Source: a bacterium
Lineage (GTDB): Bacteria; Joyebacterota; Joyebacteria; Joyebacterales; Joyebacteraceae
Direction of reading: 5' to 3'
DNA length: 64,000 nucleotides
Assembly (NCBI GenBank): GCA_025774245.1
Contig: JALGWI010000001.1
Span: 20,599-84,598, forward strand
In this document: positions 44,680 to 60,499 of the stretch, piece after piece
How the letters are laid out: each line of letters begins with the position of its first letter
How positions within the stretch are numbered: the first letter of the stretch is position 1
Notes under the pieces: model-generated
Told to the model about the DNA's origin: nothing
Databases searched by the model: none
The model's input: only the letters and a program-made list of their open reading frames with translations
Made by a program: the position numbers and the translations under genes

Positions 44680-44773
44680 GACACAGGCACAGAGGGGCAC
44701 GGACCGGCATCGGGCCGCCCGCGACGGGAGCGGGAGCGAGACGCGGTCCACCGACAGGAGAGCGAGGTTGACG

Positions 44774-45151
44774 ATGGGCAACGGGGACCTCAGGTACACC
44801 GACACGCACGAGTGGCTGAACATCGAGGATGGCGAGGTGACGATCGGCCTCACGGAGTACGCGCAGGGCGAGCTCGGGGACATCGTCTTCATCGAGCTGC
44901 CGGAGGTCGGTCGGGCGGTCGAGACCGGAGACGTTCTGACGACCGTCGAGTCGGTGAAGAGCGTCAGCGAGATCTACGCGCCGGTCGCCGGCGAGATCAC
45001 GGGAGCGAACGAGGCGCTCGACGCGGATCCGGGACTCATCAACACCGACGCGGAGGGCGAGGGGTGGATCTTGAAGATGATGCTCGCCCCCGACGCCGAC
45101 CTGTCGGCCTTCATGACCGCTGAGGATTACAAGGCGCACACGAAGGGGTAG
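44774..45151 (+). CDS. gcvH: Glycine cleavage system H protein
   Basis: YTDTHEW, GLTEYAQGELGDIVF, VESVK lipoyl-Lys, GEGWI. Confidence 0.95.
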   Translation: MGNGDLRYTDTHEWLNIEDGEVTIGLTEYAQGELGDIVFIELPEVGRAVETGDVLTTVESVKSVSEIYAPVAGEITGANEALDADPGLINTDAEGEGWILKMMLAPDADLSAFMTAEDYKAHTKG

Positions 45152-45153
45152 CG

Positions 45154-46509
45154 GTGCCGTACGTTCCGAACACCGACCGCGACCGACGCGCGATGCTCGA
45201 CACGATCGGCGCGGCGTCCGTGGATGAGCTCTTCGCCGACGTTCCGGCCGAGCTCAGAACGTCGGGGGATCTCGACGTTCCGGGCCCCCTCTCGGAGCTC
45301 GAGCTCCTGCGGCACATGCGGAAGCTCGCCTCCGCGAACAGGACGACCGACGACGTCGTGTCGTTCCTGGGCGGGGGCGTCTACGACACCGTCGTGCCGT
45401 CGGCCGTTCGGCACATCACCGGCTTGCCTCACTTCTACACCGCCTACACCCCCTACCAGGCGGAGGCGAGCCAGGGGACGCTCCAGAGCATCTACGAGTT
45501 CCAGTCGCTCATCGCGCGGCTGACGGGCCTCCCCGTCGCGAACGCGTCGATGTACGACGGCGCGTCTGCGGCCGCGGAGGCGTGCGTGGCGGCGCTCGCC
45601 GTCACGAGGAAGAGGAAGATCCTGCTCTCGGCGACGACGAACCCGGCCCTGAGGGCGGTCACGAAGACGTACCTGGGCGCGTCGGGCGCCGAGGTCGTCG
45701 AGCTTCCCTCGCGCGACGGCGTGACTGACGTCGACGTGCTCGGCGACGCCCTCGGGGACGCCGCGGCCGTGGTCGTCCAGCACCCGAACTTCTTCGGGCT
45801 GCTCGAACCGGTCGCCGAGATCGGAGAGCGCGTCTCGGAGTCGAGTGCGCTCCTTGTCTCGTCGGTCGATCCGATCTCCCTCGCGCTCCTGGCACCCCCG
45901 TCCGCGTACGGCGCCGAGATTGCGGTCGGCGAGGGGCAGTGCCTCGGGGCGCCGGTCGCCTTCGGCGGCCCGCTCCTGGGTTTCATGGCGACGACGCGGA
46001 AGCACGTCCGGCGGCTCCCCGGCAGGATCATCGGCGGGGCGACCGACGACGAGGGCCGGCGCGGCTACATCATGACGCTCCAGACGCGCGAGCAGCACAT
46101 CCGTCGTGAGAAGGCCACGTCGAACATCTGCACGAACCAGGGCCTCGTTGCCCTCGGGGCGACGGTCTATCTCTCGCTCCTCGGGAAGGCGGGCTTGAGA
46201 GAGCTGGCCGTCCAGCTCGCCTCGAAGGCGCGCTACGCAGCCGACGCGCTCTCGCACGTGCGGGGCGTCAAGCTCCGCTTCGACGGTCCCTTCTTCCGGG
46301 AGTTCGTGGTCGAGCTTCCGTTCGACGCGGCGCGCACGAAGTGCGAACTCTCGAAGATCGCAATCTGGCCCGGCATCAACTGCGGCTGCTACTACGACGA
46401 CATGAAGAACTGCCTCCTCGTGACCGTCTCCGAACGGCACACGAGGGAGGACATCGATACGCTGGCCTCGGCTCTCGAGGCCATCATCGCTACCGGAGGA
46501 ACGGCGTGA
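45154..46509 (+). CDS. gcvPA: Glycine dehydrogenase (decarboxylating) subunit 1
   Basis: YTAYTPYQAEASQGTLQ, ANASMYDG, PGRIIG, LQTREQHIRREKATSNICTNQ. Confidence 0.96.
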   Translation: MPYVPNTDRDRRAMLDTIGAASVDELFADVPAELRTSGDLDVPGPLSELELLRHMRKLASANRTTDDVVSFLGGGVYDTVVPSAVRHITGLPHFYTAYTPYQAEASQGTLQSIYEFQSLIARLTGLPVANASMYDGASAAAEACVAALAVTRKRKILLSATTNPALRAVTKTYLGASGAEVVELPSRDGVTDVDVLGDALGDAAAVVVQHPNFFGLLEPVAEIGERVSESSALLVSSVDPISLALLAPPSAYGAEIAVGEGQCLGAPVAFGGPLLGFMATTRKHVRRLPGRIIGGATDDEGRRGYIMTLQTREQHIRREKATSNICTNQGLVALGATVYLSLLGKAGLRELAVQLASKARYAADALSHVRGVKLRFDGPFFREFVVELPFDAARTKCELSKIAIWPGINCGCYYDDMKNCLLVTVSERHTREDIDTLASALEAIIATGGTA

Positions 46510-48074
46510 GCACGGCGACCGAGAGGGAGAGAGGCGCCGGGAACGGGCGAGGCGCGGGCAGCGGGCGAGGCGCCGGCAACGGGCGGGACGCCGCGGGCCC
46601 GAACGAGAGGGTGCTCGAGCCGACGATCTTCGAGCTCTCCTCGCCGGGCCGGACGGGACATCGCCTGCCGCCGCTCGACGTCCCCGAGATCGACCTTGGG
46701 GCCGCGTTCGGTACCGCGCTCCGCGAGGCTCCCCCCGAGCTTCCCGAGCTCTCCGAGCCCGAGGTCGTCCGGCACTTCACCCGTCTCGCCGAGATGAACC
46801 ACCACGTCGACCGGGCGATCTACCCTCTCGGATCGTGCACGATGAAGTACAACCCGAAGATCAACGAGGACGTGGCGGCGCTGCCCGGCCTCGCCGGCGT
46901 TCACCCCGAGGCCGAGGGGGAGTACGCGCAGGGCTCGATCGCGCTCCTCCACCACCTCGGACGCCTCCTCTGCGAGATCTCGGGCATGGACGCCGTGAGC
47001 CTCCAGCCGCCGGCGGGAGCCTCGGGCGAGCTCGCAGGGATGCTGATCGTCCGCGCCTACCACTCCGATCGCGGCAACCCCAGGAGCAGGGTCATCGTCC
47101 CGGACTCGGCGCACGGCACGAACCCGGCGAGCGTAGCGCTCGCGGGATACGAGGCCATCGAGATCGCCTCCGGCCCCGACGGGCGGATCGACGTCGACGC
47201 CCTGCGGGCCGCCGTCGACGACGAGACCGCGGCCGTCATGATCACGAACCCGAACACGCTCGGCGTCTTCGAGACGAGGATCCACGAGATCGTCGACGTG
47301 GTCCACGCCGCCGGCGGCCTCGTCTACCTCGACGGCGCGAACCTGAACGCGTCGCTCGGGGTCGTTCGGCCGGGCGACGAGGGGTTCGACATCATGCACT
47401 TCAACCTGCACAAGACGTTCTCGGCGCCGCACGGCGGCGGCGGCCCGGGGTCGGGGCCGGTCGGCGTGATGGCGCACCTGGCCCAGTACCTCCCGTATCC
47501 GGTCGCCGCGCGCGACGAGACGAAGGCCGAGGGATACGAGTACTACATGGACTACGACCGGCCGAAGTCGATCGGCAGGGTGCACGCGGCGTACGGCAAC
47601 TTTCTCGTCGCGGTGAAGGCGTACGCGTACATCCTGACGCTCGGGCCGGCGGGGTTGAGGAGGGTCGCGGAGAACGCGGTCCTCAACGCGAACTACCTCC
47701 AGAAGCTCCTCGCGCCGCACTACGACCTCCCGTACGGGGGATACTGCCAGCACGAGTTCGTGCTCTCGGCGTCGAGGCAGAAGGAGGAGAGCGGGGTCAC
47801 GGCGCTCGACATCGCGAAGCGGCTCCTCGACTACGGGCTTCACGCCCCGACGATCTACTTCCCGCTCATCGTGAAGGAAGCGCTCATGATCGAGCCGACC
47901 GAGACGGAGAGCAGGGAGTCGCTCGACCGCTTCGCCGACGTCATGCTCGCGATCGCGCGCGAGAGCCGGGAGAGCCCCGAACTCGTGACCGGCGCGCCGA
48001 CGACGACACCGGTCGGCCGCCTGGACGAGGCGCGGGCGGCCAAGGACCTGGACGTGGCCTGGGAGAACGACTGA
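46506..48074 (+). CDS. gcvPB: Glycine dehydrogenase (decarboxylating) subunit 2
   Basis: YPLGSCTMKYNP, SAHGTNPAS, NLHKTFS.PHGGGGPG (PLP Lys), EPTETES. GTG start overlaps the gcvPA stop. Confidence 0.96.
   Translation: MSTATERERGAGNGRGAGSGRGAGNGRDAAGPNERVLEPTIFELSSPGRTGHRLPPLDVPEIDLGAAFGTALREAPPELPELSEPEVVRHFTRLAEMNHHVDRAIYPLGSCTMKYNPKINEDVAALPGLAGVHPEAEGEYAQGSIALLHHLGRLLCEISGMDAVSLQPPAGASGELAGMLIVRAYHSDRGNPRSRVIVPDSAHGTNPASVALAGYEAIEIASGPDGRIDVDALRAAVDDETAAVMITNPNTLGVFETRIHEIVDVVHAAGGLVYLDGANLNASLGVVRPGDEGFDIMHFNLHKTFSAPHGGGGPGSGPVGVMAHLAQYLPYPVAARDETKAEGYEYYMDYDRPKSIGRVHAAYGNFLVAVKAYAYILTLGPAGLRRVAENAVLNANYLQKLLAPHYDLPYGGYCQHEFVLSASRQKEESGVTALDIAKRLLDYGLHAPTIYFPLIVKEALMIEPTETESRESLDRFADVMLAIARESRESPELVTGAPTTTPVGRLDEARAAKDLDVAWEND
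46533..46586 (+). repeat. Three imperfect 18-bp tandem repeats encoding GAG[N/S]GR at the GcvPB N-terminus
   Basis: ggcgccgggaacgggcga / ggcgcgggcagcgggcga / ggcgccggcaacgggcgg. Confidence 0.75.
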
Positions 48075-48077
48075 CGC

Positions 48078-48551
48078 GTGGAGAGCCTGACGTGGAGGGC
48101 CTGGCCGATGCTGCGGAGCCCGGTGAGGGCGGCCGTGGCGATCGTGTTCCTGGGGCTCGTCGGGTGGACGCTCCAGACGCTGTTCCACACGGGGTTCTTC
48201 ACGATCGTGGCGGTTCTCCTCCTGTGGAGCCAGGTGGCGGTCTTCTTCCTGCCGACGAAGTACACGCTGACGAGCGAGACCGTGACGGTGAAGGGGATCG
48301 TCAGCAAGAAGGAGAAGGACTGGGACGAGTTCCGGAGCTACTACACGGATCCCAACGGCCTCCTGCTCTCGCCCTTCGTTGAGCGCTCGAGGCTCGAGAA
48401 GTTCCGGGGGGTGTCGCTCCAGTTCCACGGCAACCGGGACGAGGTGATCTCGTTCGTCGAGACGATCATGCGACCCCGTCTCAGGGGGGACACCGATGTG
48501 GGCGATGCGGGACAAGGGGCGCGCGGAGGCGAAGCGGGACGAGCACCGTGA
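48078..48551 (+). CDS. Hypothetical membrane protein (two TM helices plus a PH-like beta domain)
   Basis: Starts 3 nt after the gcvPB stop. Two hydrophobic helices, then FFLPTKY..W.EFRSY..D.NGLLLSPF..SRLE.FRG. Confidence 0.7.
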   Translation: MESLTWRAWPMLRSPVRAAVAIVFLGLVGWTLQTLFHTGFFTIVAVLLLWSQVAVFFLPTKYTLTSETVTVKGIVSKKEKDWDEFRSYYTDPNGLLLSPFVERSRLEKFRGVSLQFHGNRDEVISFVETIMRPRLRGDTDVGDAGQGARGGEAGRAP

Positions 48552-48867
48552 GGTGATGGACCGCTTCGCCCAGAGGGTCATCGATTGGAGGATGACAGCC
48601 GTCGCGATCATGTTCCTCGAGTCGACGAAACCGTTGTCGTTTCTCGGGAACCAGGCCCTCATTTTCTTTCAGCCGATCGTGCAGTCGATCTTCAACTTCA
48701 AGAGCTACGACGAGGTGGCCGAGATCCTCGAGGACAGGGAGAACATCGAGTATCTGTTGTGCAAGATAGAAGCACTGGAAGCAGAGCGGCGTGATGCCGA
48801 GCGGGACGGGAAGCGGAAGAAGAGGGAAGAAAAGCTCGCCGCGAAGAGACTGAAGGAAGGATCCTGA
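48496..48867 (+). CDS. Hypothetical small helical protein
   Basis: AIMFLESTKPLSFLGNQALIFFQP..EDRENIEYL; charged tail; TGATG coupling to the next gene. Start could instead be 48556. Confidence 0.7.
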   Translation: MWAMRDKGRAEAKRDEHREVMDRFAQRVIDWRMTAVAIMFLESTKPLSFLGNQALIFFQPIVQSIFNFKSYDEVAEILEDRENIEYLLCKIEALEAERRDAERDGKRKKREEKLAAKRLKEGS

Positions 48868-50669
48868 TGAGTGAGAACGGGAAGGTCAAGGCCATCGTCG
48901 CGACGGACTGTGGCAGCACGACGACGAAGGCGATCCTCATCAAGCTTGTCGATGGGGAGTATCGGCTGATCGTCCGGGGCGAGGCTCCGACGACGGTCGA
49001 GTCGCCGTTCGAGGACGTGACGCGAGGCGTGCTGAACGCGATCAGGGAGGTGGAGGAGCTCTCGGGTCACGAGATCCTCGACGGCGAGACGATCATCCAT
49101 CCGAACGACGGCAACCGTGGCGTCGATCTCTATCTCTCGACGTCGAGCGCGGGCGGCGGACTCCAGATGATGGTGGCAGGTGTCGTCATGAGCATGACGG
49201 CCGAGAGCGCCGAGCGCGCCGCCCTCGGCGCCGGCGCGATCGTCATGGACGCGCTGGCCTCGAACGACGGGCGGCTCGCGCACGAGAAGATCGAGCGGAT
49301 CAGGCATCTCCGGCCAGACATGATCCTCCTCTCCGGGGGGATCGACGGCGGGACGATCACGCACGTGGTGGAGCTCGGCCAGGTCATCTCCGCGGCCGAT
49401 CCCAAGCCGCGCCTCGGGATCGGGTACAACCTGCCGATCATCTACGCCGGGAACGTGGAAGCCCGCGGCGAGGTCGAGGCCCTCTTGGGCGACAAGACCG
49501 CGCTGTCCCTCGTGGACAACCTGCGGCCGGTCCTCGAGCGGGAGAACCTCGGTCCCGCGAGGGACATGATCCACGACCTCTTCATGGAACACGTCATGGC
49601 GCAGGCGCCGGGCTACAACAAGCTCATGAGCTGGACCGACGCTCCGATCATGCCGACGCCGGGCGCGGTCGGCTCGATCATCGAGACGATCGCGGACCGG
49701 CAGGGGATCGAGGTCGTCGGCGTCGACATCGGCGGCGCCACGACCGACATCTTCTCGGTCTTCCAGAACACGTTCAACCGGACCGTCTCCGCGAACCTCG
49801 GCATGAGCTACTCGGTATCGAACGTCCTCGCCGAGGCCGGGATCGAGAACGTGATGCGCTGGGTCCCGTTCGAGCTTCCCGAGCTCGGTGTCCGGAACCG
49901 CATCAAGAACAAGATGATCAGGCCGACGACCGTCCCACAGGCGCTCGACGACCTCAAGCTCGAGCAGGCGATCGCGCGCGAGGCGCTGCGGCTCGCGTTC
50001 GAGCAGCACAAGTCGTTCGCCGTCGGTCTCAAAGGCGTCCAGCAGGAGAGGACGATCTCCGACGCGTTCAGCCAGTCGGCGTCGGGCGAGACGCTCGTCG
50101 ACATGATGGACCTCGACCTCCTCGTCGGGTCCGGGGGCGTGCTCTCGCACGCTCCGAGGAGGCAGCAGGCGGCGATGATGCTCATCGACGGCTTCCTCCC
50201 CGAGGGCGTGACGCGGCTCGCGGTCGACTCGATCTTCATGATGCCGCAGCTCGGCGTCCTGGCGGAGGTGCACGAGAAGGCCGCGACCGAGGTCTTCGAG
50301 AAGGACTGTCTCATCCACCTCGGCACGCTCGTGGCGCCGGTGGGAACGACGCAGGAGGGGAAGCCCTGCATCAAGCTCGAGGCCTCGCTTCCCGACGGCA
50401 CGTCGATCGACGAGGACATCCCCTTCGGCGAGATGAGGGTCTACCCGCTGGGTGTGGGGGAGACCGTCGACGTCAAGCTCACACCGGCCCGCGGCTTCGA
50501 CGCCGGCGCCGGCGCCGGGAAGGTCATGGAGGCGACGCTCGCAGGCGGGGTCGTGGGGCTCATGGTCGACGCGCGGGGAAGGCCCTTCGCTCTCCCGGTC
50601 GACGCGAGCCAGCGGGTCGCGAAGCTCAGCAGATGGGCGAAGGCGTTCGACGCCTACCCGGAAACGTAG
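48867..50669 (+). CDS. GlmL/MutL-family (glutamate mutase accessory-like) ASKHA ATPase with C-terminal extension
   Basis: ATDCGSTTTK (phosphate-1), SSAGGGL, LLSGGIDGG, YAGN, MPTPGAV, VDIGGATTDIFS (phosphate-2), RTVSANLGMSYS, GSGGVLSHAP, DARGRP. Confidence 0.8.
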   Translation: MSENGKVKAIVATDCGSTTTKAILIKLVDGEYRLIVRGEAPTTVESPFEDVTRGVLNAIREVEELSGHEILDGETIIHPNDGNRGVDLYLSTSSAGGGLQMMVAGVVMSMTAESAERAALGAGAIVMDALASNDGRLAHEKIERIRHLRPDMILLSGGIDGGTITHVVELGQVISAADPKPRLGIGYNLPIIYAGNVEARGEVEALLGDKTALSLVDNLRPVLERENLGPARDMIHDLFMEHVMAQAPGYNKLMSWTDAPIMPTPGAVGSIIETIADRQGIEVVGVDIGGATTDIFSVFQNTFNRTVSANLGMSYSVSNVLAEAGIENVMRWVPFELPELGVRNRIKNKMIRPTTVPQALDDLKLEQAIAREALRLAFEQHKSFAVGLKGVQQERTISDAFSQSASGETLVDMMDLDLLVGSGGVLSHAPRRQQAAMMLIDGFLPEGVTRLAVDSIFMMPQLGVLAEVHEKAATEVFEKDCLIHLGTLVAPVGTTQEGKPCIKLEASLPDGTSIDEDIPFGEMRVYPLGVGETVDVKLTPARGFDAGAGAGKVMEATLAGGVVGLMVDARGRPFALPVDASQRVAKLSRWAKAFDAYPET

Positions 50670-50760
50670 CCCTTGAGGCGCGGCCGGCGCAGACGGAGTC
50701 CGCCGCCGGGAGCCGCGCGGGTATCGGTTACGATCACACTGAGTTCCAGGAGCAGAAGCA

Positions 50761-51888
50761 ATGGCACACGCATACACACCAGGCCTGAGGGTCGCGGAAC
50801 TGACGGTGCTCAGGAAGGAGCGCCGCCTCCCGATCAAGGGAGATGTTCTCGTCGACGTGGGCGACGCCGTGACCTCGGACACCGTCGTCGCGAGGACACA
50901 CCTCCCGGGGAACGTCCAGCTCGTGAACGTGGCGAGCAAGCTGGGCCTTCCGCCGGAGGACCTGCCGACCGTCATGGTGAAGAAGGAAGGCGACCCGGTC
51001 GAGAAGGGCGAGCCGATCGCCACGACGAAGGGGTTCTTCGGGCTCTTCAAGTCGAACGTCCCGTCGCCGTGCGCGGGCTCGCTCGAGAACATCTCGACGG
51101 TGACCGGACAGGTCATCCTCCGCGAGCCGCCGTCCCCCATCGAGATCGACGCGTACGTCGACGGTCAGGTCGTCGAGGTCTTCGAGGCGGAGGGGGTCGC
51201 GATCGAAACCGTCGGGACGTTCATCCAGGGCATCTTCGGCGTCGGCGGTGAGCGGACCGGCGAGATCAGGGTGGCCGTCGCGAATCCCGGGGAGGTCCTC
51301 GACGCGTCGAAGCTCGACGATTCGATGAAGGGCCAGGTGGTCATCGGCGGCTCGCACGTCACGTGGGACGGGCTCCAGAAGGCGATGAAGATCGGAGCGT
51401 CCGGCGTCGTCGTCGGCGGGTTCGACGACCCCGATCTCAAACGCCTTCTCGGGAAGGACCTGGGCGTCGCGATCACCGGGCAGGAGGACGTCGCGACCAC
51501 GCTCATCCTGACGGAGGGCTTCGGTGAGATGGCCATGGCCCACGGGACGTTCGATCTCCTGAAGAAGCGCGAGGGGCGGAAGGCGTCGATCAACGGCGCG
51601 ACCCAGATTCGCGCGGGCGTCATGAGGCCCGAGATCGTGGTGCCGATCACCGAGGAGCGGGAGAGCGTCCGGGAGGAGGCCGCGAGCGAGGCGACCGGCC
51701 TCGAGATCGGAAGCGCGATCCGCGCTATCCGCGAGCCGTACTTCGGGAGGCTCGGCGAGGTCACCGAGCTTCCGAACGAGCTCCGGAAGATGGAGTCGGA
51801 GTCGATGGTCCGCGTGCTCCAGGTGCGCTTCGAGGACGGCTCGGAGGCGCTCCTGCCGAGGGCCAACGTCGAGATGATCGAGCACTGA
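50761..51888 (+). CDS. Conserved hypothetical protein with barrel-sandwich-hybrid-like N-terminal motifs and a KOW/SH3-like C-terminus
   Basis: GDVLVDVGDAV..DTVVA and KKEGDPVEKGEPIA..VPSPCAG; IQGIFGVGGE; GVAITGQED..LILTEGFG; INGATQIRAGVMRPE; IREPYFG..G.V; PRANVE. Confidence 0.75.
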   Translation: MAHAYTPGLRVAELTVLRKERRLPIKGDVLVDVGDAVTSDTVVARTHLPGNVQLVNVASKLGLPPEDLPTVMVKKEGDPVEKGEPIATTKGFFGLFKSNVPSPCAGSLENISTVTGQVILREPPSPIEIDAYVDGQVVEVFEAEGVAIETVGTFIQGIFGVGGERTGEIRVAVANPGEVLDASKLDDSMKGQVVIGGSHVTWDGLQKAMKIGASGVVVGGFDDPDLKRLLGKDLGVAITGQEDVATTLILTEGFGEMAMAHGTFDLLKKREGRKASINGATQIRAGVMRPEIVVPITEERESVREEAASEATGLEIGSAIRAIREPYFGRLGEVTELPNELRKMESESMVRVLQVRFEDGSEALLPRANVEMIEH

Positions 51889-52009
51889 ACCGGTCCGCCC
51901 GGTCCCCGGCGCGCCGCAGGAGCCGGGGGCGGAGGAGCGCCGGAGATTTCGGCTTTCGCGAGCCGCCTGCGTGTCCGGGCGCTGAGGGAAGGGCGCGGGG
52001 ACATTTGGC

Positions 52010-52038
52010 TTGACAGGCGCCTGGCCGTCTGGTAACTT
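52010..52038 (+). promoter_or_regulatory. Sigma70-like promoter for the membrane cassettes
   Basis: TTGACA-N17-TAACTT with an extended -10 TG. Confidence 0.65.
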
Positions 52039-52109
52039 TTTTCCACTTTCCGGACCGTCTCGAGGGGGCAGGCTGCCGCCTGTACACCGGACCGTGAGGG
52101 GAGAGTTGG

Positions 52110-53348
52110 ATGCGGCGTGACAGAGGGCGCTCGATGAGGGCGCGCACACCAGCAGGGTTCGTCGTCGGCGTCTTGTCGATCTCGGCCCTGTTCTTGTGTT
52201 CGGCCGCGCTCGCGCAGGAGGAGATCGAGGCCGCGCCGGCCGACAGCCTCCCGCCTCTCTCGCCCCCGACGTCGGTGATGATCTCGGACACCCCGAACGA
52301 CCGCGGGTTCTCGATCAACGTCACCTGGGCGCTCTCCAGCGACGACGAGGCCGGGAGGGTGACGTCGTACCGGATCTACAGGACGTCGGATCCGGACACC
52401 GGCTTCGCGTTCGCCGGGCGGGTCTCGCCGGGGGACACCGAGTACCGCGACGGCGATGCGCCCGAGGGAGAGCTCGTCTACTACCGCGTCTCCGCTACCG
52501 ACGACGTCGGCGCAGAGTCGCCGTCCGAGACCTCGGCCCCGACTCAGGCCGTACCGCAGTGGTTCAACAAGGAACGCATCAACGTCCTGATCGCCGTGTT
52601 CATCTTCGTCGCGGCGATCGTCTACTTCGTGGTGTCGGCGCGCCGGGGGAAGGACCTCTTCATCAGACGCCTCGCGGGGCTCGACGAGGTCGACAACGCG
52701 GTCGGTCGCGCCACCGAGATGGGCAAGCCGATCCTCTACATCTCGGGCCTCTCGACAGTCTCCGACGTCGCGACGATCGCGGCGATCAACATCCTGGGCG
52801 AGGTCGCGAAGAAGACAGCCGAGTACAACACCCGGCTCATCGTGCCTTGCGCCGACCCCATCGTCATGGCCGTCGAGCAGGAGGTCGTCAAGGAGGCGTA
52901 CGCCAAGGTCGGAAGGCCCGACTCCTACAACGAGGACGACGTCTTCTACCTGACGAGGAGCCAGTTCGCGTACGTCGCGGGCGTGAACGGCATCATGGTG
53001 CGTCAGCGACCCGCGACGATCCTCTACATGGGCATGTTCTTCGCCGAGTCGCTCGTTCTCGCCGAGACCGGCGCCTCGGTCGGAGCGATCCAGATCGCGG
53101 GGACCGACGCCGTGACGCAGCTTCCGTTCTTCATCACGGCGTGCGACTACACGCTGATCGGCGAAGAGCTCTACGCGGCGAGCGCCTACCTCTCTCGCGA
53201 GCCCGTTCTCCTGGGCGGTCTCAAGGGACAGGACACGCTCAAGATGGTGATCGCGATCACCATCATTCTGACGACCATCGTGGCGACGCTCGTCGCGGTG
53301 AACGCGATCGGGGCCGATTTCATGACGCCGCTTCTGATCACGCAGTAG
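52110..53348 (+). CDS. Cassette 1 gene A: signal peptide + FN3 domain + DUF6754-like membrane domain
   Basis: DTPNDRG..I.VTW..YRIYR..YYRV (FN3); TM; FIRRLAGL..VD.AVGRATEMGKP, FFAESL.LAETG, QIAGT..QLPFF..CDYTLIGEELYAASAYLSREP. Alternative start 52134. Confidence 0.8.
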   Translation: MRRDRGRSMRARTPAGFVVGVLSISALFLCSAALAQEEIEAAPADSLPPLSPPTSVMISDTPNDRGFSINVTWALSSDDEAGRVTSYRIYRTSDPDTGFAFAGRVSPGDTEYRDGDAPEGELVYYRVSATDDVGAESPSETSAPTQAVPQWFNKERINVLIAVFIFVAAIVYFVVSARRGKDLFIRRLAGLDEVDNAVGRATEMGKPILYISGLSTVSDVATIAAINILGEVAKKTAEYNTRLIVPCADPIVMAVEQEVVKEAYAKVGRPDSYNEDDVFYLTRSQFAYVAGVNGIMVRQRPATILYMGMFFAESLVLAETGASVGAIQIAGTDAVTQLPFFITACDYTLIGEELYAASAYLSREPVLLGGLKGQDTLKMVIAITIILTTIVATLVAVNAIGADFMTPLLITQ

Positions 53349-53408
53349 CGGCAGGGGGAGGATCCCGCGCGTCCGCGCGGGCAAGCCGAAGGTCCGAGGG
53401 GTCAGAGG

Positions 53409-54041
53409 ATGTTGCGTCGAAGGCTACCGCTGCTGCTGTGCTTCATCGCCGGTCTCTTCATGGCGGTCCAGTACTACGTCCCCCACCACTCGGTGCAGAG
53501 TGCCTACGAGACGTTGCTGCTCTGGCTCCAGACGCTTCTCGCCTTCGCGTTCCTCCTCGGGACCGTGAGTCTGATCCGGGTCCACTACCACAAGATCAGG
53601 AACAAGGCTGCCGACCGCGGGTTCAGCCTCGTGATGTTTGCGGGGCTCTTCGCCATGCTCGGTCTCGGCTTCTTCCACCCGTCGCACCACGCGCCGGGGT
53701 CGCCGTTCAACCTGATGTTCCTGAACGTCCAGGTGCCGATCGAGGCGACGATGTTCTCGCTCCTGGCGTTCTACGTTGCCTCGGCCGCCTTTCGCGCCTT
53801 CCGCGCGAGGACGCTCGAGGCGACGCTGCTGCTCGTCGCGGCAGCGATCGTGATGCTCGGGCGTGTCCCGATCGGGGAGATGATCTCGAGCACGATCCCC
53901 GAGGCCACCCGCTGGATCCTCGAGGTGCCGAACCTCGCCGCGAAGCGTGGGATCATGATCGGCGTCGGCCTCGGCATGATGGCGACGTCGCTCAAGATCA
54001 TCCTCGGCATCGAGCGCGCGTGGATGGGCGGAGGCGACTAG
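53409..54041 (+). CDS. Cassette 1 gene B: polytopic membrane protein
   Basis: Five to six hydrophobic helices; P.EATMFSLLAFYVASAAFRAFRAR, VMLGRVP.G, PN.AAKRGI.IG..LG, LKIILGIER. Confidence 0.8.
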   Translation: MLRRRLPLLLCFIAGLFMAVQYYVPHHSVQSAYETLLLWLQTLLAFAFLLGTVSLIRVHYHKIRNKAADRGFSLVMFAGLFAMLGLGFFHPSHHAPGSPFNLMFLNVQVPIEATMFSLLAFYVASAAFRAFRARTLEATLLLVAAAIVMLGRVPIGEMISSTIPEATRWILEVPNLAAKRGIMIGVGLGMMATSLKIILGIERAWMGGGD

Positions 54042-54086
54042 ACGTCGTCTCTACGTGGGCGCGGACGGCCGCGCCCGGAGGCACTG

Positions 54087-54944
54087 ATGGCTTCATCGAT
54101 GACCCGGTTCTTCGAGAGGTTCCTCAAGATCGACAGGCGCTGGATCTTCCTCGCGATTGCCATCGCGGTGGTCATCCCGTTCTTCGCGCCTCTCGGTCTC
54201 CCCGTCGACGTGACGCCACCTGTTCAGCGCCTCTACGACGCGGTCGACGAACTCGAGGCGGGAGGAGCTCCTCTCCTTCTCTCGATCGACTACACGCCGG
54301 CGACGTCTCCCGAGCTCGAGCCGATGTCGACGGCAATCCTGCGCCACGTGTTCGAGAAGGGCGTCCGGGTCATCGTGATGACGCTTCACCCGGCCGGCTA
54401 CGGCATGGCCGAGAGCGCGATCCTCAGGGCGGCGGAGGAGGCGGGGGCCGAGTACGGCGAGGACCTCGTGTACCTCGGCTTCCAGCCGGGCACGTCCGCG
54501 GTGATCCTGGGCCTCGGCGTCAACATCACGAACGTCTTCCCCGAGGACGCATACGGGACGCCGCTCTCAGAGATTCCCCTGATGGAGGGGATCCGGAACT
54601 ACGACGACATCCCTCTCCTCATCTCGCTGGCCGGGTGGTCGGCGTCGGAGGCGTGGGTCTACTTTGCGCACCAGCCCTACGGACAGAGGGTCGGCGGCGG
54701 TGTGACGGCGGTCATGGCAACCGATCTCTACCCGTACCTCGATTCGGGCCAGCTCGTTGGTCTTCTGGGCGGGATGCGTGGTGCGGCGGAGTACGAGGTG
54801 CTCATCGGGCGGCCCGGCTCCGGAGCACGGGGCATGGACTCGCAATCGGTGATTCACCTGATCATCATTCTTTTGATCGTGCTTGGGAACGTCGCCTATT
54901 TCGCGACGAGAAGGCAGCGGAAGCTGGCGGGAGAAGGAACCTAG
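54087..54944 (+). CDS. Cassette 1 gene C: membrane-anchored protein with a large soluble alpha/beta domain
   Basis: IDRRWIF + TM; DY.P...PEL.PM, EYGEDLVYLG, FP.D.YGTP..EIPLM, YPY..SGQLVGLLGG.RGAAEYE, GMDSQS..H + TM. Confidence 0.8.
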   Translation: MASSMTRFFERFLKIDRRWIFLAIAIAVVIPFFAPLGLPVDVTPPVQRLYDAVDELEAGGAPLLLSIDYTPATSPELEPMSTAILRHVFEKGVRVIVMTLHPAGYGMAESAILRAAEEAGAEYGEDLVYLGFQPGTSAVILGLGVNITNVFPEDAYGTPLSEIPLMEGIRNYDDIPLLISLAGWSASEAWVYFAHQPYGQRVGGGVTAVMATDLYPYLDSGQLVGLLGGMRGAAEYEVLIGRPGSGARGMDSQSVIHLIIILLIVLGNVAYFATRRQRKLAGEGT

Positions 54945-55005
54945 ACTCGGGACCCCGGGGCCTCTGGACCCGGGTGCCCGCGGGCCTGACCTCGCGGAGG
55001 CAGAC

Positions 55006-55869
55006 ATGGAGTTCTCCACCCTCATCTGGACGACTATCGGGGTCATCCTGACGCTCTGCGTCTACAGCTTCCTGTACAAGGACAACCCGTTCTACAAGTT
55101 CGCCGAACACCTGGTCGTCGGCGCGTCGGCCGGCTACTACCTCGTCATCTACTACTACAACTTCATCGACCCGAACGTCGTGCGTCCGGTCTTCCAGCTC
55201 GAGCACGGTGGCCAGGCCATCGCGCTCGGCGGCTTCGAGTGGTGGATGGCGCTCATCCCCGGTCTCCTCGGCCTCCTTCTCTACGCGCGGTTCTTCCCCA
55301 AGATCGCGTGGGTAGGACGCTGGCCGCTCGGCATCTACGTCGGCGGTTACGCCGGTCTCGGCATCTCGCCGGTGATGCAGGCGCGCGTCATCGATCAGAT
55401 GCGGGCCGCTTCGTCGCCCCTGGCCTCGATCGTCGGGCCGGGCGAGGTGGTCGATCCGTTCGCCGCGGTGACGAACACCGCACTCGGCTTCGTCATCTTC
55501 GCCGTGATGACCTATTTCCTCCTCGCGAAGCGGCACCTCGGCTCCAGGGGAATCGCCGCGATGATCGGGGTGATCGCCGCCTCGGCCGTCGTCGGCTACG
55601 GTGGCTATGTGGTGCTGACGGCGTTGTCGGCTGCGAACGTCGTGTCGACGACGAGCATCCTCCTGGTCGTCGGGCTCCTCGGTACCCTCGCGTACTTCTT
55701 CTTCTCTCTGAGGCACACGGGCCTCCTGGGCGGGCTCGCCCGGATCGGCATCGTGTTCCTCATGGTGGGATTCGGCGCCTCATTCGGCTACACGGTCATG
55801 TCGAGAATCTCGCTCCTGATCGGCAGGGTGGGTTTCCTCATCGACTGGATCGGGATGTTCTCCTCGTAG
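55006..55869 (+). CDS. Cassette 1 gene D: polytopic membrane protein
   Basis: LTLCVYSFLYKDNPFYKFAEHL.VG..AGY, RWPL, YFFFS..H.G, FLMVGFGASFGYTVM.R.SLLIGR. GGAGG RBS. Confidence 0.8.
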   Translation: MEFSTLIWTTIGVILTLCVYSFLYKDNPFYKFAEHLVVGASAGYYLVIYYYNFIDPNVVRPVFQLEHGGQAIALGGFEWWMALIPGLLGLLLYARFFPKIAWVGRWPLGIYVGGYAGLGISPVMQARVIDQMRAASSPLASIVGPGEVVDPFAAVTNTALGFVIFAVMTYFLLAKRHLGSRGIAAMIGVIAASAVVGYGGYVVLTALSAANVVSTTSILLVVGLLGTLAYFFFSLRHTGLLGGLARIGIVFLMVGFGASFGYTVMSRISLLIGRVGFLIDWIGMFSS

Positions 55870-55911
55870 GCCGGTGGACCTGATGGACAGACCGCCGCCC
55901 GCGGGGCGGCC

Positions 55912-55941
55912 GAGGGGAGCGAAGAACGCCCCCTCTTTTCT
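55912..55941 (+). terminator. Possible intrinsic terminator between the two cassette copies
   Basis: GAGGGG(A)GCG-aagaa-CGCCCCCTC followed by TTTTCT. Confidence 0.45.
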
Positions 55942-55949
55942 CGTCACGG

Positions 55950-57182
55950 ATGCGCGGTTCGATGATGAGAGCATCTCTTGCAGTTCTCTCCATACTCGTG
56001 CTCTCCCTCACGTTCGGCTGGGCGTGGGCCCAGGACGAACTCGTGCTTGAGGGCGTTGAGCCCGCGTTGTCCGACACCCTTCCGCCAGATCTGATCCCGC
56101 CAGCGCCTGCCGCCGGCCTCACTGCCGTCGACTACGTCGACAACAACGACTCCGGAAACAAGATCGACCTCTCCTGGACGACCTCGCCGGACGACGGCGA
56201 CGGAGCGGCCGACGTCACCGGCTACCAGGTCTGGAGGTCGGAGACGGCCGCCGGGCCGGGAGACACGCTCGCGTTCGTCGCGGCGGGGCAGGCCGGCTAT
56301 CTCGACGAGACCGCTGAGCCCGGCACGCCCTACTACTACAGCGTCACCGCCTTCGACGGCACGAACCACTCCGACGCCGTCTCCTTCGGCCCCGTCGCGG
56401 GCGCCCGCAACTGGTTCACCGCCACGCGCGCCGCCGTCCTCGTGCTCGTGTCGGTCTTCTTCGGCCTGGTCCTCGTCTTCACGCAGCTCGCGGAGCGGGG
56501 CGCCAAGCTCTTCGTGCGCCGCATTCCCGGCCTGAACGCGATCGAGGAGGCCGTCGGACGCGCCACCGAGATGGGCAGGCCGGTCCTCTACGTTCCCGGC
56601 ATCGGCGAGATCGACAACATCATGACGATCGCGTCTCTGACGATCCTCTCGCACGTGGCGAAGATCACGGCGCGCTACGAGACGCCGCTCATCGTCCCCA
56701 CCGCGCGGGCGGTCGTTATGTCGGCGGCCGAGGAGGTCGTCAAGGAGGCCTACGCGGAAGTGGGGAAGCCGGACGCGTACAACCGCGACAACATCCGGTA
56801 CCTCTCGGACGCGCAGTTCGCCTTCGCCGGGGCCGTGAACGGCATCATGCTCAGGGAGAAGCCGGCAGCGAACCTGTATCTCGGCGCGTTCTGGGCCGAG
56901 TCGCTCCTCCTGGCGGAGACCGGATTCGAGGCCGGGGCGATCCAGGTCGCCGGGACCGCGATGGTCTCGCAGCTCCCGTTCTTCGTGACGGCGTGCGACT
57001 ACACACTCCTCGGAGAGGAGCTCTACGCCGCGAGCGCGTACCTCTCGCGCGAGCCCAAGCTCCTCGGCGGGCTCAAGGGCTCCGACTGGATGAAGGTCGT
57101 CACGATCGTCCTCATCGCGGCCGGCATCATCATGAACCTCGTGGGCGCGGACGCGTTCGTCGAGTGGTTCCACACGAGCTAG
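55950..57182 (+). CDS. Cassette 2 gene A: signal peptide + FN3 domain + DUF6754-like membrane domain
   Basis: Paralogue of 52110-53348: FVRRIPGL.AIEEAVGRATEMGRP, AESLLLAETG, QLPFFVTACDYTLLGEELYAASAYLSREP. Alternative start 55962. Confidence 0.8.
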   Translation: MRGSMMRASLAVLSILVLSLTFGWAWAQDELVLEGVEPALSDTLPPDLIPPAPAAGLTAVDYVDNNDSGNKIDLSWTTSPDDGDGAADVTGYQVWRSETAAGPGDTLAFVAAGQAGYLDETAEPGTPYYYSVTAFDGTNHSDAVSFGPVAGARNWFTATRAAVLVLVSVFFGLVLVFTQLAERGAKLFVRRIPGLNAIEEAVGRATEMGRPVLYVPGIGEIDNIMTIASLTILSHVAKITARYETPLIVPTARAVVMSAAEEVVKEAYAEVGKPDAYNRDNIRYLSDAQFAFAGAVNGIMLREKPAANLYLGAFWAESLLLAETGFEAGAIQVAGTAMVSQLPFFVTACDYTLLGEELYAASAYLSREPKLLGGLKGSDWMKVVTIVLIAAGIIMNLVGADAFVEWFHTS

Positions 57183-57194
57183 CGGAGTGACCCT

Positions 57195-57869
57195 GTGAGA
57201 AGAGAGATCCCGATAGCGATCACGTTTCTGATCGGCATCTTCATGATCGTCGACTTCTTCGTCCCGCACACGGCCGTGACCACGGCCGCGGACGAGATCA
57301 AGCAGTGGGGGATCATCGTGATCGCCGCCTCGATCCTGCTCGGGATCGGGAACCTCGTCAGGGTCCACTCGAAGAACATCGCCAGGAAGAACAGAGGGTG
57401 GGGCTACAGCATCATCACGCTCGCGGTCATGGCGGTGATGCTCTTCCTCGGCCTGTGGCCCGGAGCGCACCTGGGCCCGAACGAGGCGATCGGGACCGTG
57501 TCGGAGGGAACGCCCTTCAACTGGATGTTCATTCACATGCAGGTGCCGCTCCAGAGCACGATGTTCTCGCTCCTGGCCTTCTTCATCGCGTCGGCCGCGT
57601 ATCGCGCGTTTCGCCTGCGCTCCGCGGAGTCGAGTCTCCTGCTCATTGCCGCGATCATCGTCATGCTCGGTCGCGTTCCCCTTGGGGCGTACCTCACGAG
57701 GAACCTGCCGGAGCACGCGCAGCTCCCGTGGATCACGGAGACGATCATGGCCTATCCGAACATGGCGGCGTTTCGGGGGATCCTCATGGGCGCCGCGCTC
57801 GGCGTGATGGCGATGGGTCTTCGTATCATCCTCGGGATCGAGCGATCGTATCTGGGCGGAGAGAAATAG
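57195..57869 (+). CDS. Cassette 2 gene B: polytopic membrane protein
   Basis: Paralogue of 53409-54041: QVPLQSTMFSLLAFFIASAAYRAFR, VMLGRVPLG, PNMAAFRGI, LRIILGIER. Confidence 0.8.
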   Translation: MRREIPIAITFLIGIFMIVDFFVPHTAVTTAADEIKQWGIIVIAASILLGIGNLVRVHSKNIARKNRGWGYSIITLAVMAVMLFLGLWPGAHLGPNEAIGTVSEGTPFNWMFIHMQVPLQSTMFSLLAFFIASAAYRAFRLRSAESSLLLIAAIIVMLGRVPLGAYLTRNLPEHAQLPWITETIMAYPNMAAFRGILMGAALGVMAMGLRIILGIERSYLGGEK

Positions 57870-57885
57870 GGGGGAAGCGGAGCGG

Positions 57886-58740
57886 ATGGCGAAGGGATTC
57901 GACATACGGAGCATCGACCGCAGGATCATCTTCGTGCTGATCTTCGTGGCGGTCGCGATCCCGCTCATCAAGCCCCTCGGGCTCCCGGTCGGTGTCTCGC
58001 CGCCCGTCCAGTCGCTCTACGACGCCGTCGACGCGCTGCCGCCGGGGACGATCGTCATGCTGGGTGGCGACTACAGCCCCGACACGGTTGCCGAACTCCA
58101 GCCGATGGCGATCGCGTTCCTGCGCCACGCCTTCAGGAACGACCTTCGGGTCGTGATCACGTGCCTCTGGCCGGCCTCGCCGCCGCTCGTCGAGGCCGCG
58201 CTGGCGCCGCTCGTGGATGAGTTCGACAAGGAGTACGGGGTCGACTACGTGAACCTGGGGTACATGACCGGCGGTCCCGTGACGATCCTGGGCATGGGCA
58301 ACAGCATCCCGGGCACGTTCCCTCGGGACTACTACGGCACGCCGGTCGCAGAGATCCCACTCATGCGGGAGGTCGACAACCTCGACGACATCGAGCTCGT
58401 GATGGAGGTGTCTGCCGGCACCCCGGGCACGCGGGAGTGGGTGCAGCAGGCCGTGAGCAGGTTCAGCGTCACCCTCGGGGCCGGCACGACGGCCGTCGGC
58501 GCGCCGAATTTCTATCCGTACATATCGAGCGGGCAGCTGGTCGGGCTCCTCGGAGGACTCAAGGGCGCCGCCGAGTACGAGATCCTCGTGGGTGCCCCGG
58601 CGGACGCGGTGAAGGGCATGGACGCCCAGTCGATCGTGCACGCTCTCATCGTCTTCTTCATCCTGTTCGGGAACGTGGTCTACTTCGTGAGCGGGCGTCC
58701 TTCGGCAGGCTCGCTGACGGCATCGAGGGGTGAGCGATGA
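57886..58740 (+). CDS. Cassette 2 gene C: membrane-anchored protein with a soluble alpha/beta domain
   Basis: Paralogue of 54087-54944: IDRRIIF, DYSP..AELQPM, EYGVDYVNLG, YPY.SSGQLVGLLGGLKGAAEYE, GMDAQS..H. Confidence 0.8.
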   Translation: MAKGFDIRSIDRRIIFVLIFVAVAIPLIKPLGLPVGVSPPVQSLYDAVDALPPGTIVMLGGDYSPDTVAELQPMAIAFLRHAFRNDLRVVITCLWPASPPLVEAALAPLVDEFDKEYGVDYVNLGYMTGGPVTILGMGNSIPGTFPRDYYGTPVAEIPLMREVDNLDDIELVMEVSAGTPGTREWVQQAVSRFSVTLGAGTTAVGAPNFYPYISSGQLVGLLGGLKGAAEYEILVGAPADAVKGMDAQSIVHALIVFFILFGNVVYFVSGRPSAGSLTASRGER

Positions 58741-59423
58741 GCAGCTGGGTGGAGCAGTTCTTCGGTGGCGGGGCCGGGACGTCGGCGGCGATGTTCTGGG
58801 GCACGTGGGTCGCCGCGCTCCTCACGCTCTGCATCTACAGCTTTCTGTACAGGGACAACCCGCTCTACAAGTTCGCGGAGAGCCTCTTCGTCGGGATCGG
58901 CGCCGCGTACTGGCTCGCGATCCTCTACCACAACACCCTCAAGCCGAAGCTCTTCGTCGCGCTCTTTCCGGGTGACTCGGGCGAGCCGGTCCTCTGGTAC
59001 CGCATTTTCCCGGGCATCCTCGCGGTCTTCATGCTCCTCAGGTTCTACCCGAAGATCTCCTGGCTCTCGCGCTGGTCCCTCGCGTTCATCGTGGGGATGT
59101 ACGCGGCCGTCAACCTGACGGGATTCGCGCAGGCGGACTTCGTCGAGCAGATCTACGCGACGATGAGGACCCCGCTGGTCGGCGGGGGAGCCCTCTTGTT
59201 CATCCTGAACCTGTCCGCGATCATCGGCGTCGTCTCGGTTCTGATCTACTTCTTCTTCTCGAAAGAGCACAAGGGCCCCATCGGCGCCGTGGCCAAGGTC
59301 GGGATCTGGTTCCTCATGGTGGCCTTCGGGGCGTCTTTTGGATACACGGTGATGGGGCGCGTCTCCCTCCTGATCGGGAGAATGACGTTCCTCCTCAGGG
59401 ACTGGCTGCACGTTATCGACTAG
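58737..59423 (+). CDS. Cassette 2 gene D: polytopic membrane protein
   Basis: Paralogue of 55006-55869: LTLCIYSFLYRDNPLYKFAE, YFFFSKEH.G, FLMVAFGASFGYTVMGRVSLLIGR. ATGA overlap with gene C. Confidence 0.8.
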   Translation: MSSWVEQFFGGGAGTSAAMFWGTWVAALLTLCIYSFLYRDNPLYKFAESLFVGIGAAYWLAILYHNTLKPKLFVALFPGDSGEPVLWYRIFPGILAVFMLLRFYPKISWLSRWSLAFIVGMYAAVNLTGFAQADFVEQIYATMRTPLVGGGALLFILNLSAIIGVVSVLIYFFFSKEHKGPIGAVAKVGIWFLMVAFGASFGYTVMGRVSLLIGRMTFLLRDWLHVID

Positions 59424-59550: not shown

Positions 59551-60357
59551 GTGACATCCTGGCGCTTCCTCGACACGGGGGCGCGCGACGGCGCGACCAA
59601 CATGGCGATCGACGAGGCGCTCCTCCTGGGAGTCCAGCGGGGGAGCTCTCGGCCGACGGTGCGCGTCTACGCGTGGGACCCGCCGACGGTGTCGACCGGC
59701 CACTCGCAGCGCGCGGAGGACGAGCTCGACCTTGCGGCCTGCGGGCGGGCGGGCGTCGGGGTCGTGCGGCGGCCGACCGGCGGACGCGCGGTGCTGCACG
59801 CCGGCGAGCTTACCTACTCGGTGACGGGCCCCTCGTGTGTCCCGCCGCTCGGGGGGACCATCATGGAGTCGTACCGCGCCGTGGCGCTCGGGCTGATCGC
59901 GGCCCTCCGGTCCTTAGGCGTCGACGCCGAGTTCGAGCGCGTGGCCACGGAGGCGCGGGGGAGGGAGGGCGGCGCGAGCCCGCCGTGCTTCGTGAGCGCC
60001 GGCCGCTTCGAGATCGTGGTCGGCGGGCGCAAGCTCGTGGGGAGCGCGCAGAGACGCGCCGAGGGAGCAGTGCTGCAACACGGCTCGCTCCTCCTCGACG
60101 GCACGCACGCCGGGCTCGCCGACCTCGTGCACGCGCGCAACGAGCGGGAGCGAGCCGTGTTACGGCGCTCCCTCGAATCGAAGACGACCGACCTCTCGAC
60201 CATCCTGGGTCGCGGCGTCGCGTTCGACGAGATCGCTCCGGCGATCAGGGGCGGATTCGGGGAAGCGTGGGGCATCGAACTGGCTGAGGGGCCGCTCACC
60301 GAACCCGAGATGGAGGAGGCCCAGCACCTTGCAACTGGCTATGAGCTGGTCGCTTAG
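59551..60357 (+). CDS. Lipoate-protein ligase / octanoyltransferase (LplA/LipM family, catalytic domain only)
   Basis: WR..DTG..DGATNMAIDEAL, RRPTGGRAVLH..ELTYS, CF, GRKLVGSAQ.R, LQHGS. Confidence 0.9.
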   Translation: MTSWRFLDTGARDGATNMAIDEALLLGVQRGSSRPTVRVYAWDPPTVSTGHSQRAEDELDLAACGRAGVGVVRRPTGGRAVLHAGELTYSVTGPSCVPPLGGTIMESYRAVALGLIAALRSLGVDAEFERVATEARGREGGASPPCFVSAGRFEIVVGGRKLVGSAQRRAEGAVLQHGSLLLDGTHAGLADLVHARNERERAVLRRSLESKTTDLSTILGRGVAFDEIAPAIRGGFGEAWGIELAEGPLTEPEMEEAQHLATGYELVA

Positions 60358-60373
60358 ACGCGGCAGAAAGCAG

Positions 60374-60402
60374 TTGACAGTCCTTGCGCAGCGGTGTAGC
60401 AT
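60374..60402 (+). promoter_or_regulatory. Sigma70-like promoter for the TonB-dependent receptor locus
   Basis: TTGACA-N17-TAGCAT about 100 nt upstream of the ATG at 60500. Confidence 0.6.
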
Positions 60403-60499
60403 GCCAAGTAGAGGAGACGAGCGACCGGTCCTCGCCTATTCCCCGGGCGAAGCAGCGTGTATCTGTGTGCCGGACAACCCCCGAGGAGATGATGAGAGA

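Follow-up and report, generated by a model that had tools for sequence, protein, structure and literature searches.

A conserved L-H ATPase pair and its four-subunit membrane cassettes, a candidate ATP-driven importer, beside glycine cleavage genes in a member of the Joyebacteraceae

Gene content of the locus

The system described here occupies positions 48,078 to 59,423 of a 64,000-nucleotide stretch (the window) of contig JALGWI010000001.1 (assembly GCA_025774245.1), from a bacterium of the Joyebacteraceae. Twelve plus-strand open reading frames (ORFs) were located between the stop codon of gcvPB (48074) and a PF21948 lipoate-ligase gene (59551), and were named g1, g2, L and H, followed by two cassettes, A1-B1-C1-D1 and A2-B2-C2-D2. 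L and H encode an ATPase and its soluble partner, and each A-B-C-D cassette a four-subunit membrane set; together they may constitute an ATP-driven importer. Topologies given below are predictions.

48078..48551, + strand: g1, 157 amino acids (aa); two transmembrane (TM) helices and a small soluble domain; putative accessory subunit
48496..48867, + strand: g2, 123 aa, no TM helix; putative accessory subunit; no family match
48867..50669, + strand: L, 600 aa; ATPase of the ASKHA (actin/Hsp70/sugar kinase) fold; PF13941
50761..51888, + strand: H, 375 aa; soluble partner of L; AlphaFold2 (AF2) model
52110..53348, + strand: A1, 412 aa; signal peptide, exported FN3-like domain, TM, cytoplasmic DUF6754, TM; PF20539 E 4.5e-121
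53409..54041, + strand: B1, 210 aa; polytopic, 5-6 TM, N-terminus inside (hydropathy and Lys+Arg profile)
54087..54944, + strand: C1, 285 aa; TM, extracytoplasmic alpha/beta domain, TM; candidate substrate-binding subunit
55006..55869, + strand: D1, 287 aa; polytopic, about 6 TM; start revised
55950..57182, + strand: A2, 410 aa; FN3-TM-DUF6754-TM; PF20539 E 7.6e-116, fn3 E 0.006; 47% identity to A1
57195..57869, + strand: B2, 224 aa; polytopic; 45% identity to B1
57886..58740, + strand: C2, 284 aa; TM-alpha/beta-TM; 49% identity to C1
58737..59423, + strand: D2, 228 aa; polytopic; 35% identity to D1; conserved FFFSxEHKG and GASFG stretches
43537..48074, + strand: gcvT, gcvH, gcvPA and gcvPB; context, outside the system; gcvT assigned by Pfam, the others from translations
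59551..60357, + strand: lipoate/octanoyl ligase-family gene (LplA/LipM-like); context; PF21948 E 9.5e-38, below all six NCBIfam cut-offs

The ORFs and gaps agreed with an earlier, sequence-only reading of this DNA, which had described twelve co-oriented genes between gcvPB and a lipoate-ligase gene: gcvPB and g1 were separated by 3 nucleotides (nt), g1 and g2 overlapped by 56 nt, g2 and L were coupled through TGATG, and gaps of 91 and 221 nt were found between L and H and between H and A1, respectively, with gaps of 12-80 nt or -4 nt inside and between the cassettes. Two gene descriptions were revised. The start of D1 is most likely ATG 55006, which lies behind a GGAGG, rather than TTG 54883, and g1 is not soluble, because hydropathy revealed two hydrophobic segments; no Pfam or NCBIfam match was obtained for g1, and its small soluble domain is presumably PH-like, as judged by eye. 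B1 had no above-cut-off family in the same two databases, and the FN3/Ig and barrel-sandwich Pfam matches in the twelve proteins were weak and below cut-off. The two cassettes are paralogues, with 35-49% identity subunit by subunit.

A sigma-70-like site was found 5' of gcvT and no terminator-like site at the gcvPB/g1 junction, by a consensus scan that performs at chance level, and co-transcription of g1-g2-L with gcv is plausible. A weak terminator-like hairpin was seen at 52014-52031 in the H-A1 gap, and the cassettes may therefore be transcribed apart from gcv-g1-g2-L-H. Most simply, the LplA/LipM-like gene downstream of D2 would serve GcvH. It is followed by a TonB-dependent receptor-like gene (60329-63244) with its own sigma-70-like site (60374-60402).

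Co-occurrence, gene order and copy number

L and H were each present once in the host genome (3.2 Mb, 97.4% complete) and cassettes three times, the third being on contig C1 at 47.4-52.5 kb (L001:7411-12474). A MacAB-type ABC exporter cluster comes first there, then genes for an L-lysine 6-transaminase and an R15P-isomerase-like protein, and directly 3' of these the third cassette. Locus counts were made on 80 loci, the best of 564 genome loci found for H, comprising 21 loci from the host family and 59 from outside it. L was present in 48 of these and A in 29 (a count made without the host's own locus, L001), g2 was present in 35, and g1 adjoined L in 25, including loci from Bacillota and Latescibacterota. 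H was found with neither L nor a cassette in its flanks in 29 of the 59 non-family loci, mostly from WOR-3; in two such genomes that were inspected, L and DUF6754 were located elsewhere in the genome.

Presence and absence at genome level were counted with kin that are not independent. H and DUF6754 were each found in 20 of 251 Bacillota genomes and both in 19 (21 positive genomes altogether), and in the same 3 of 151 Thermoproteota genomes. Within the host family, DUF6754 was present in 22 of 23 genomes, and the exception also had no canonical H. The earlier proposal of a conserved, undescribed membrane system was borne out, and a published description was not found in searches for DUF6754, the GlmL/mutase ATPase, TIGR01319 and 'glutamate mutase L', which covered neither most subscription papers nor supplements. 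Homologues of H and of A each formed at least 8000 clusters at 90% identity, and 3969 relatives of C remained after clustering at 50%.

A was followed by B, C and D in 72 of 73 cases, many of them close kin, and the one miss was a short stray match. The whole set was found as a single operon, g2-A-B-C-D-L-H, in two Bacillota (G160 and G275). L and H were also fused: 71 of the 72 longer H homologues were L-H fusions, some of which are named 'glutamate mutase L' in databases. A second, divergent class of L-H fusion without the KOW domain of H was noted as well (G001:C16, G007:C113, G008:C8; P0444-P0462), and DUF6754 was not found in one of its carriers, G008. A single apparent H-A fusion (P0402), in which the signal peptide of A is kept after H and the protein is cut short, was rejected as a read-through artefact.

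Cassettes outnumbered L-H pairs. The complete 2.3-Mb genome of Ca. Fermentithermobacillus carboniphilus (G025) contained 13 cassettes (52 cassette genes; one A truncated) and five L-H pairs, in addition to a 486-aa GlmL-type gene inside an ornithine aminomutase operon, and an archaeal genome (G356) contained a single H and seven cassettes, in one of which B is shortened; the host ratio is 3 to 1. Mean identity among the G025 paralogues was 45% for A and 36-38% for B, C and D, as expected if A carried a shared docking site. Two further neighbours of H recurred. A gene of 315-318 aa without a Pfam match follows H at nine Bacillota/Bathyarchaeia loci (L052:12110-13063; L019-L022, L048, L076, L027, L030) and could encode a further accessory subunit, and tsaE, accompanied by tsaB/tsaD-like genes, comes after H or D at several loci of Bacillota (L136, L138, L139, L022), which is probably synteny only.

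The ATPase, its partner and the membrane subunits

L matched PF13941 over residues 10-481 (E 2.6e-126, 422.5 bits, cut-off 27) and fell below the cut-offs of NF040745, NF040744 and TIGR01319 (bits/cut-off 225/475, 218/600 and 163/204, respectively). It is of a long GlmL-like type with a C-terminal extension of ~120 aa, is 59-72% identical across phyla, and keeps the ASKHA phosphate motifs DCGSTTT (phosphate-1), DIGGATT (phosphate-2) and GSGG across 42 aligned sequences; L presumably hydrolyses ATP. The same ASKHA core is found in GlmL/MutL and Or-4/OraF, and MutL is described (PMC4682846) as a chaperone that reactivates glutamate mutase. In contrast to GlmL/Or-4, which are 450-487 aa long, L is always paired with H, scores below the cut-offs and lies in a separate clade, and no cognate GlmE/OraE was found in the genome. 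Matches to GlmE (PF06368) and the OraE type (PF09043) numbered zero in the 97.4% complete host genome, the PF09043 model being silent in control genomes and yet matching OraE in other loci, and of six B12-binding matches, the three viewed by eye resembled methionine synthase, a corrinoid protein and the methylmalonyl-CoA mutase small subunit. The expectation that the system would occur without glmS/glmE was supported. A quick maximum-likelihood tree of 52 sequences, in which long branches meet, split 43 H-linked L proteins from nine short ones (SH-aLRT 100), six of which adjoin B12-enzyme genes (Pfam-confirmed); PF13941 as such was present in 102 of the 251 Bacillota genomes, where the short type prevailed. 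L as a helper of a B12 mutase was ruled out by the sub-cut-off GlmL scores, the missing mutase and the separate clade. Beside divergent short GlmL and PrpF genes, two loci encode proteins of ~620 aa in which the only Pfam match is a C-terminal B12-binding domain (L143:7144-8994; L144:1185-3050), possibly an unnamed B12 mutase.

The AF2 model of H (pLDDT 87.5) predicted three domains, a barrel-sandwich hybrid (about 11-150), a swivel beta/beta/alpha domain (152-296) and a KOW/SH3-like domain (311-375). The best fold match of the swivel was the His-domain of the phosphotransferase system (PTS) enzyme I (2wqd, Z 9.6, root-mean-square deviation (rmsd) 2.7, 105 aligned), near-tied within about 1 Z with other swivel domains such as those of rifampin phosphotransferase (Z 8.8) and RraA (Z 8.4); pyruvate kinase matched at Z 8.2, and the KOW domain had a match at Z 8.7. 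The hybrid matched the N-termini of RnfC/NqrA at Z 7.7-8.0 over 64 residues (NqrA Z 8.0), with weak Pfam matches to RnfC/NqrA-type hybrids in 92 and 45 of 107 H members. The invariant residues of H, among them T239, E242 and T281, are concentrated in the swivel and KOW domains, which suggests binding surfaces. Residues 1-8, MAHAYTPG (50761-50784), are nearly invariant in the main clade and of low confidence in the monomer model, and are likely to be a docking peptide. Sequence searches of the PDB gave no match for L or A and nothing better than E 0.017 for H and E 0.79 for C, and the ESM Atlas returned only unnamed look-alikes for H and none for DUF6754.

For A1, residues 140-412 were modelled (pLDDT 83.3) as a six-stranded Rossmann-like domain between two TM helices. 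In a second look at its fold matches, DUF6754 was closest to Sir2Af2 (Z 11.3-11.9, rmsd 3.4, 142 aligned), leading by about 2 over transhydrogenase dIII (Z 9.6) and the carbon monoxide dehydrogenase (CODH) small chain (Z 9.4), while in a wide search RCK, GT-B, SIS and SDR domains tied at Z 9-10, within about 1 Z. In SCOP the sirtuin, dIII and CODH domains are grouped as DHS-like NAD/FAD-binding folds. Identity to the structural matches was 7-14%, and sequence support was lacking: profile scores of DUF6754 or C against ETF-alpha (24 sequences) and PntB dIII (4 sequences) stayed within those of shuffles, and nucleotide binding by DUF6754 is therefore only a lead. The near-invariant residues of A were T332, C345 and D346. 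A in G025 and G356 is 255-305 aa long and has no room for FN3, which is thus an add-on.

The Lys+Arg bias would place the domain of A inside and that of C outside. From TM1 to TM2, A and C aligned with 68-72% probability (E 3-5e-5) by hhalign on deep alignments, against 11.5% for the best of 20 block shuffles; earlier comparisons of shallow alignments had given 14.6% and 1.4%. Together with the opposite charge bias, this alignment points to homologous domains on both membrane faces around B and D, and C is probably an inverted, outward-facing homologue of DUF6754. C subunits accept large inserts of up to about 550 aa, with Ig-like repeats seen by eye in P0150 (P0150, P0232, P0238, P0264), and one of these four has a duplicated domain, which is consistent with an extracytoplasmic location. 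B and D are each predicted to contain about six TM helices.

As a system, the set belongs to no family tested. Matches to P-loop ABC ATPase, binding-protein, EcfT/S and DctPQM families were absent from Pfam and NCBIfam searches (E<=0.1), as were flavin and Fe-S family matches, in keeping with the earlier view that the composition fits no classical ATP-binding cassette (ABC), energy-coupling factor (ECF), tripartite ATP-independent periplasmic (TRAP), Rnf/Nqr or Na+-decarboxylase system; structure searches with H and DUF6754 did not place them in a described complex either. Group II ECF transporters, in which one ATPase unit is common to many substrate modules, and ABC importers resemble the system in organisation only, with a shared ATPase unit and many scattered substrate-specific membrane modules, whereas here the ATPase is of the ASKHA fold and each module has four subunits. 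Rnf and Na+-NQR share the hybrid domain and two polytopic subunits of ~210 aa, but no Cys was conserved (at >=70%) in the H, B, C and D alignments, an ATPase takes the place of the redox subunits, and there are many paralogous copies. The alpha subunit of diol/glycerol dehydratase reactivases combines an ASKHA ATPase with a swivel domain. L and H join these same two domain kinds, which is a lead only; the reactivase was absent among the 50 listed H fold matches and 25 listed Pfam families, and there was no dehydratase context.

A proposed shared energiser for exchangeable membrane modules

The reading that we favour, with about an even chance of being right, is that of an ATP-driven importer in which a shared L-H energiser serves exchangeable A-B-C-D substrate modules. 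Each cassette would form one membrane module, specific for its substrate and with about 14-16 TM helices, in which B and D are the translocation core; the outside alpha/beta domain of C would bind or gate the cargo, and the inside Rossmann-like DUF6754 domain of A would be the docking place of the soluble L-H pair. As in related chaperone-type reactivases, the ATP cycle of L could grip and release a Rossmann-type client via the swivel and KOW surfaces of H, and this cycle would flip the module between outward-open and inward-open states. Many modules would depend on one or a few L-H pairs, much as the modules of group II ECF transporters depend on a common ATPase, and the cargo would most likely be small organic nutrients (peptides, amino acids or acylated derivatives) used by anaerobes that ferment amino acids. 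Of the sequence-only proposal of a multi-subunit ATP-coupled transporter or ion-translocating complex, the first half is thus retained as the leading reading, and the ion-translocating role was not supported. The importer is favoured by the cassette to L-H ratios in G356, G025 and the host, and by the co-occurrence of H with DUF6754 even where the genes are far apart, together with the L-H fusion, the A-B-C-D order, the single operon of two Bacillota and the alignment of A with C under opposite charge bias. It is also favoured by the position of the third host cassette behind L-lysine 6-transaminase in a genome in which no family-5 (Opp/Dpp) binding protein was found; none was found in 12 of the 23 host-family genomes.

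The cargo is, as a best guess from the host lifestyle and single neighbours, an amino-acid or peptide-derived nutrient. G025 is described (PMC10215811) as non-respiring and as fermenting peptides and amino acids. The flanks of its cassettes contained peptidases or amidohydrolases in 9 of 26 genes as compared with 18 of 111 background genes (p 0.05, borderline) and regulators in 4 of 26 as compared with 1 of 111, where the background was ten arbitrary regions of G025 only and classes were assigned by hand from matches. Pooled with further cassettes, and with two DUF885 neighbours left uncounted, the peptidase/amidohydrolase enrichment fell to 15 of 63 (p 0.23) and was dropped, as was Amidohydro_3 adjacency (4 of 63 as compared with 2 of 111, p 0.19). 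Enzymes of D-amino-acid metabolism were seen repeatedly (L119:7536-8663; L152:8439-9266; L110:8702-9745; L155:3053-4057): a DmpA-type S58 peptidase gene lies 5' of g1-L-H in eight Bacillota loci, an M55 D-aminopeptidase gene directly after H in the archaeon G356, and D-Ala-D-Ala ligase-like genes near two cassettes. Their recurrence, without statistical support, suggests D-peptide or cell-wall-derived cargo.

Several observations weigh against the importer. A divergent cassette was present in G122 without H being found, and L-H in G035 without DUF6754 being found. The similarity of A and C fell to 11-25% on the soluble parts alone, no homology was detected between B and D, and no structure (models of H and A) puts any subunit in a known transporter fold. 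Among 19 further cassettes from six genomes, peptidases or amidohydrolases made up 6 of 37 neighbours (p 1.0), so that the G025 enrichment was not replicated, and its regulator enrichment was absent there too. Opp-type binding proteins occur in 11 of the 23 host-family genomes, and G025 has four oligopeptide ABC systems according to PMC10215811; the cassettes are therefore not a simple Opp substitute.

Among the alternatives, group translocation or a trans-membrane enzyme stands highest, and is still unlikely. L would be a kinase and H a mobile phosphoryl or acyl carrier, from which A and C would hand the group on to the other side of the membrane or alter the cargo on its way through, in PTS-like import or in export or modification of an envelope component. 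The likeness of the middle domain of H to the swivelling His-domains of PTS enzyme I, rifampin phosphotransferase and pyruvate kinase would fit such a carrier, as would the invariant T239, E242 and T281 of H, the near-invariant T332, C345 and D346 of A, and the proximity of DUF6754 to nucleotide-binding domains. However, the only conserved His of H was H3 (88%), and none was among the commonest residues at 219-227, the place expected for a phospho-His as judged from secondary structure and the usual motif; swivel folds at tied Z also occur in the non-phosphorylated RraA and aconitase X, and, unlike the PTS, the system has an ATP-type rather than a phosphoenolpyruvate-type partner and no EII family match.

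We regard as improbable a division into two separate units, an ion-driven secondary transporter formed by A-B-C-D and a soluble hydantoinase/oxoprolinase-type ATP-dependent enzyme, L-H, acting on the imported cargo. Weak Pfam matches to Hydantoinase_A in L point that way, as do the frequent distance between L-H and cassettes, the solitary H of 29 of the 59 non-family loci, and the D-aminopeptidase genes that abut L-H in eight Bacillota loci and one archaeon. Yet the single H of G356 with its seven divergent cassettes better fits a shared energiser, H is no hydantoinase-B-type subunit by Pfam or fold, and the highly conserved cytoplasmic DUF6754 would be left partnerless. A sensory array, in which the cassettes are receptors (C sensing outside, A signalling inside) that feed a shared L-H kinase/adaptor in the manner of chemoreceptors and CheA-CheW, seems very improbable: it would account for the large number of divergent membrane modules and the scarcity of L-H pairs in a genome, and for the SH3-like KOW domain at the end of H, but the roughly 12 TM helices of B and D exceed the needs of signalling, and no output domain or regulator is kept beside L-H across phyla.

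A tie to glycine cleavage was part of the sequence-only reading. gcvPB is adjacent upstream in 15 of the 21 host-family loci; outside the family it was near in only 5 of 59 loci and a lipoate ligase gene in 7, and of the 30 non-family loci that hold both L and H, 10 had at least one of the two; neither gcv nor a lipoate ligase was near in any of nine Bacillota loci. With kin not independent, gcvP was found in 18 of 19 Bacillota carriers and 153 of 232 others (p 0.009), so that 153 gcvP-positive Bacillota genomes are without the complete system, and in 3 of 3 archaeal carriers and 48 of 148 others. In G025, G026, G275 and G356 its distance from L-H is between 60 kb and 1.8 Mb, and it was not found in G060, where the system is present. 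Given the gcvP enrichment, an indirect link to amino-acid fermentation stands, and a dedicated one to glycine cleavage was not supported; most simply, the system would have been inserted long ago, in one group of phyla, into an operon of gcv and lipoate ligase genes, and its carriers would share an amino-acid-fermenting lifestyle. A gcv/lipoyl-dedicated ion-translocating or transport complex with H as a lipoyl-type shuttle, which the gcv neighbours, the gcvP enrichment and the RnfC/NqrA-like hybrid would favour, is the least probable of the alternatives, since the hairpin tip of H has F92 F93 G94 L95 F96 (83-97 of 107) and no lipoyl Lys (K90 and K97, each about 80%, flank the tip; register set against the GcvH of the window), and since a single bioenergetic complex would hardly be expected as thirteen paralogous modules.

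The system is large, highly conserved and spans bacteria and archaea. To our knowledge, every ATP-driven importer is powered by a P-loop, P-type or rotary ATPase, and a membrane module driven by an ATPase of the ASKHA fold would, if true, be a new coupling principle. The naming of L-H proteins as 'glutamate mutase L' is a database error that may lead genome reconstructions to infer glutamate fermentation wrongly, and is corrected here, and the 13 paralogues of the complete G025 genome form a ready panel for ligand screens. Rather tentatively, at somewhat less than an even chance, we propose that bacteria and archaea have a new class of primary-active transporter, powered by an actin/Hsp70-fold ATPase, in which L-H would be common to up to 13 exchangeable four-subunit modules, each built on an inverted pair of homologous Rossmann-like domains, the outside domain capturing cargo and the inside domain docking the ATPase, and which may be a main uptake route of uncultured anaerobes that ferment protein and necromass.

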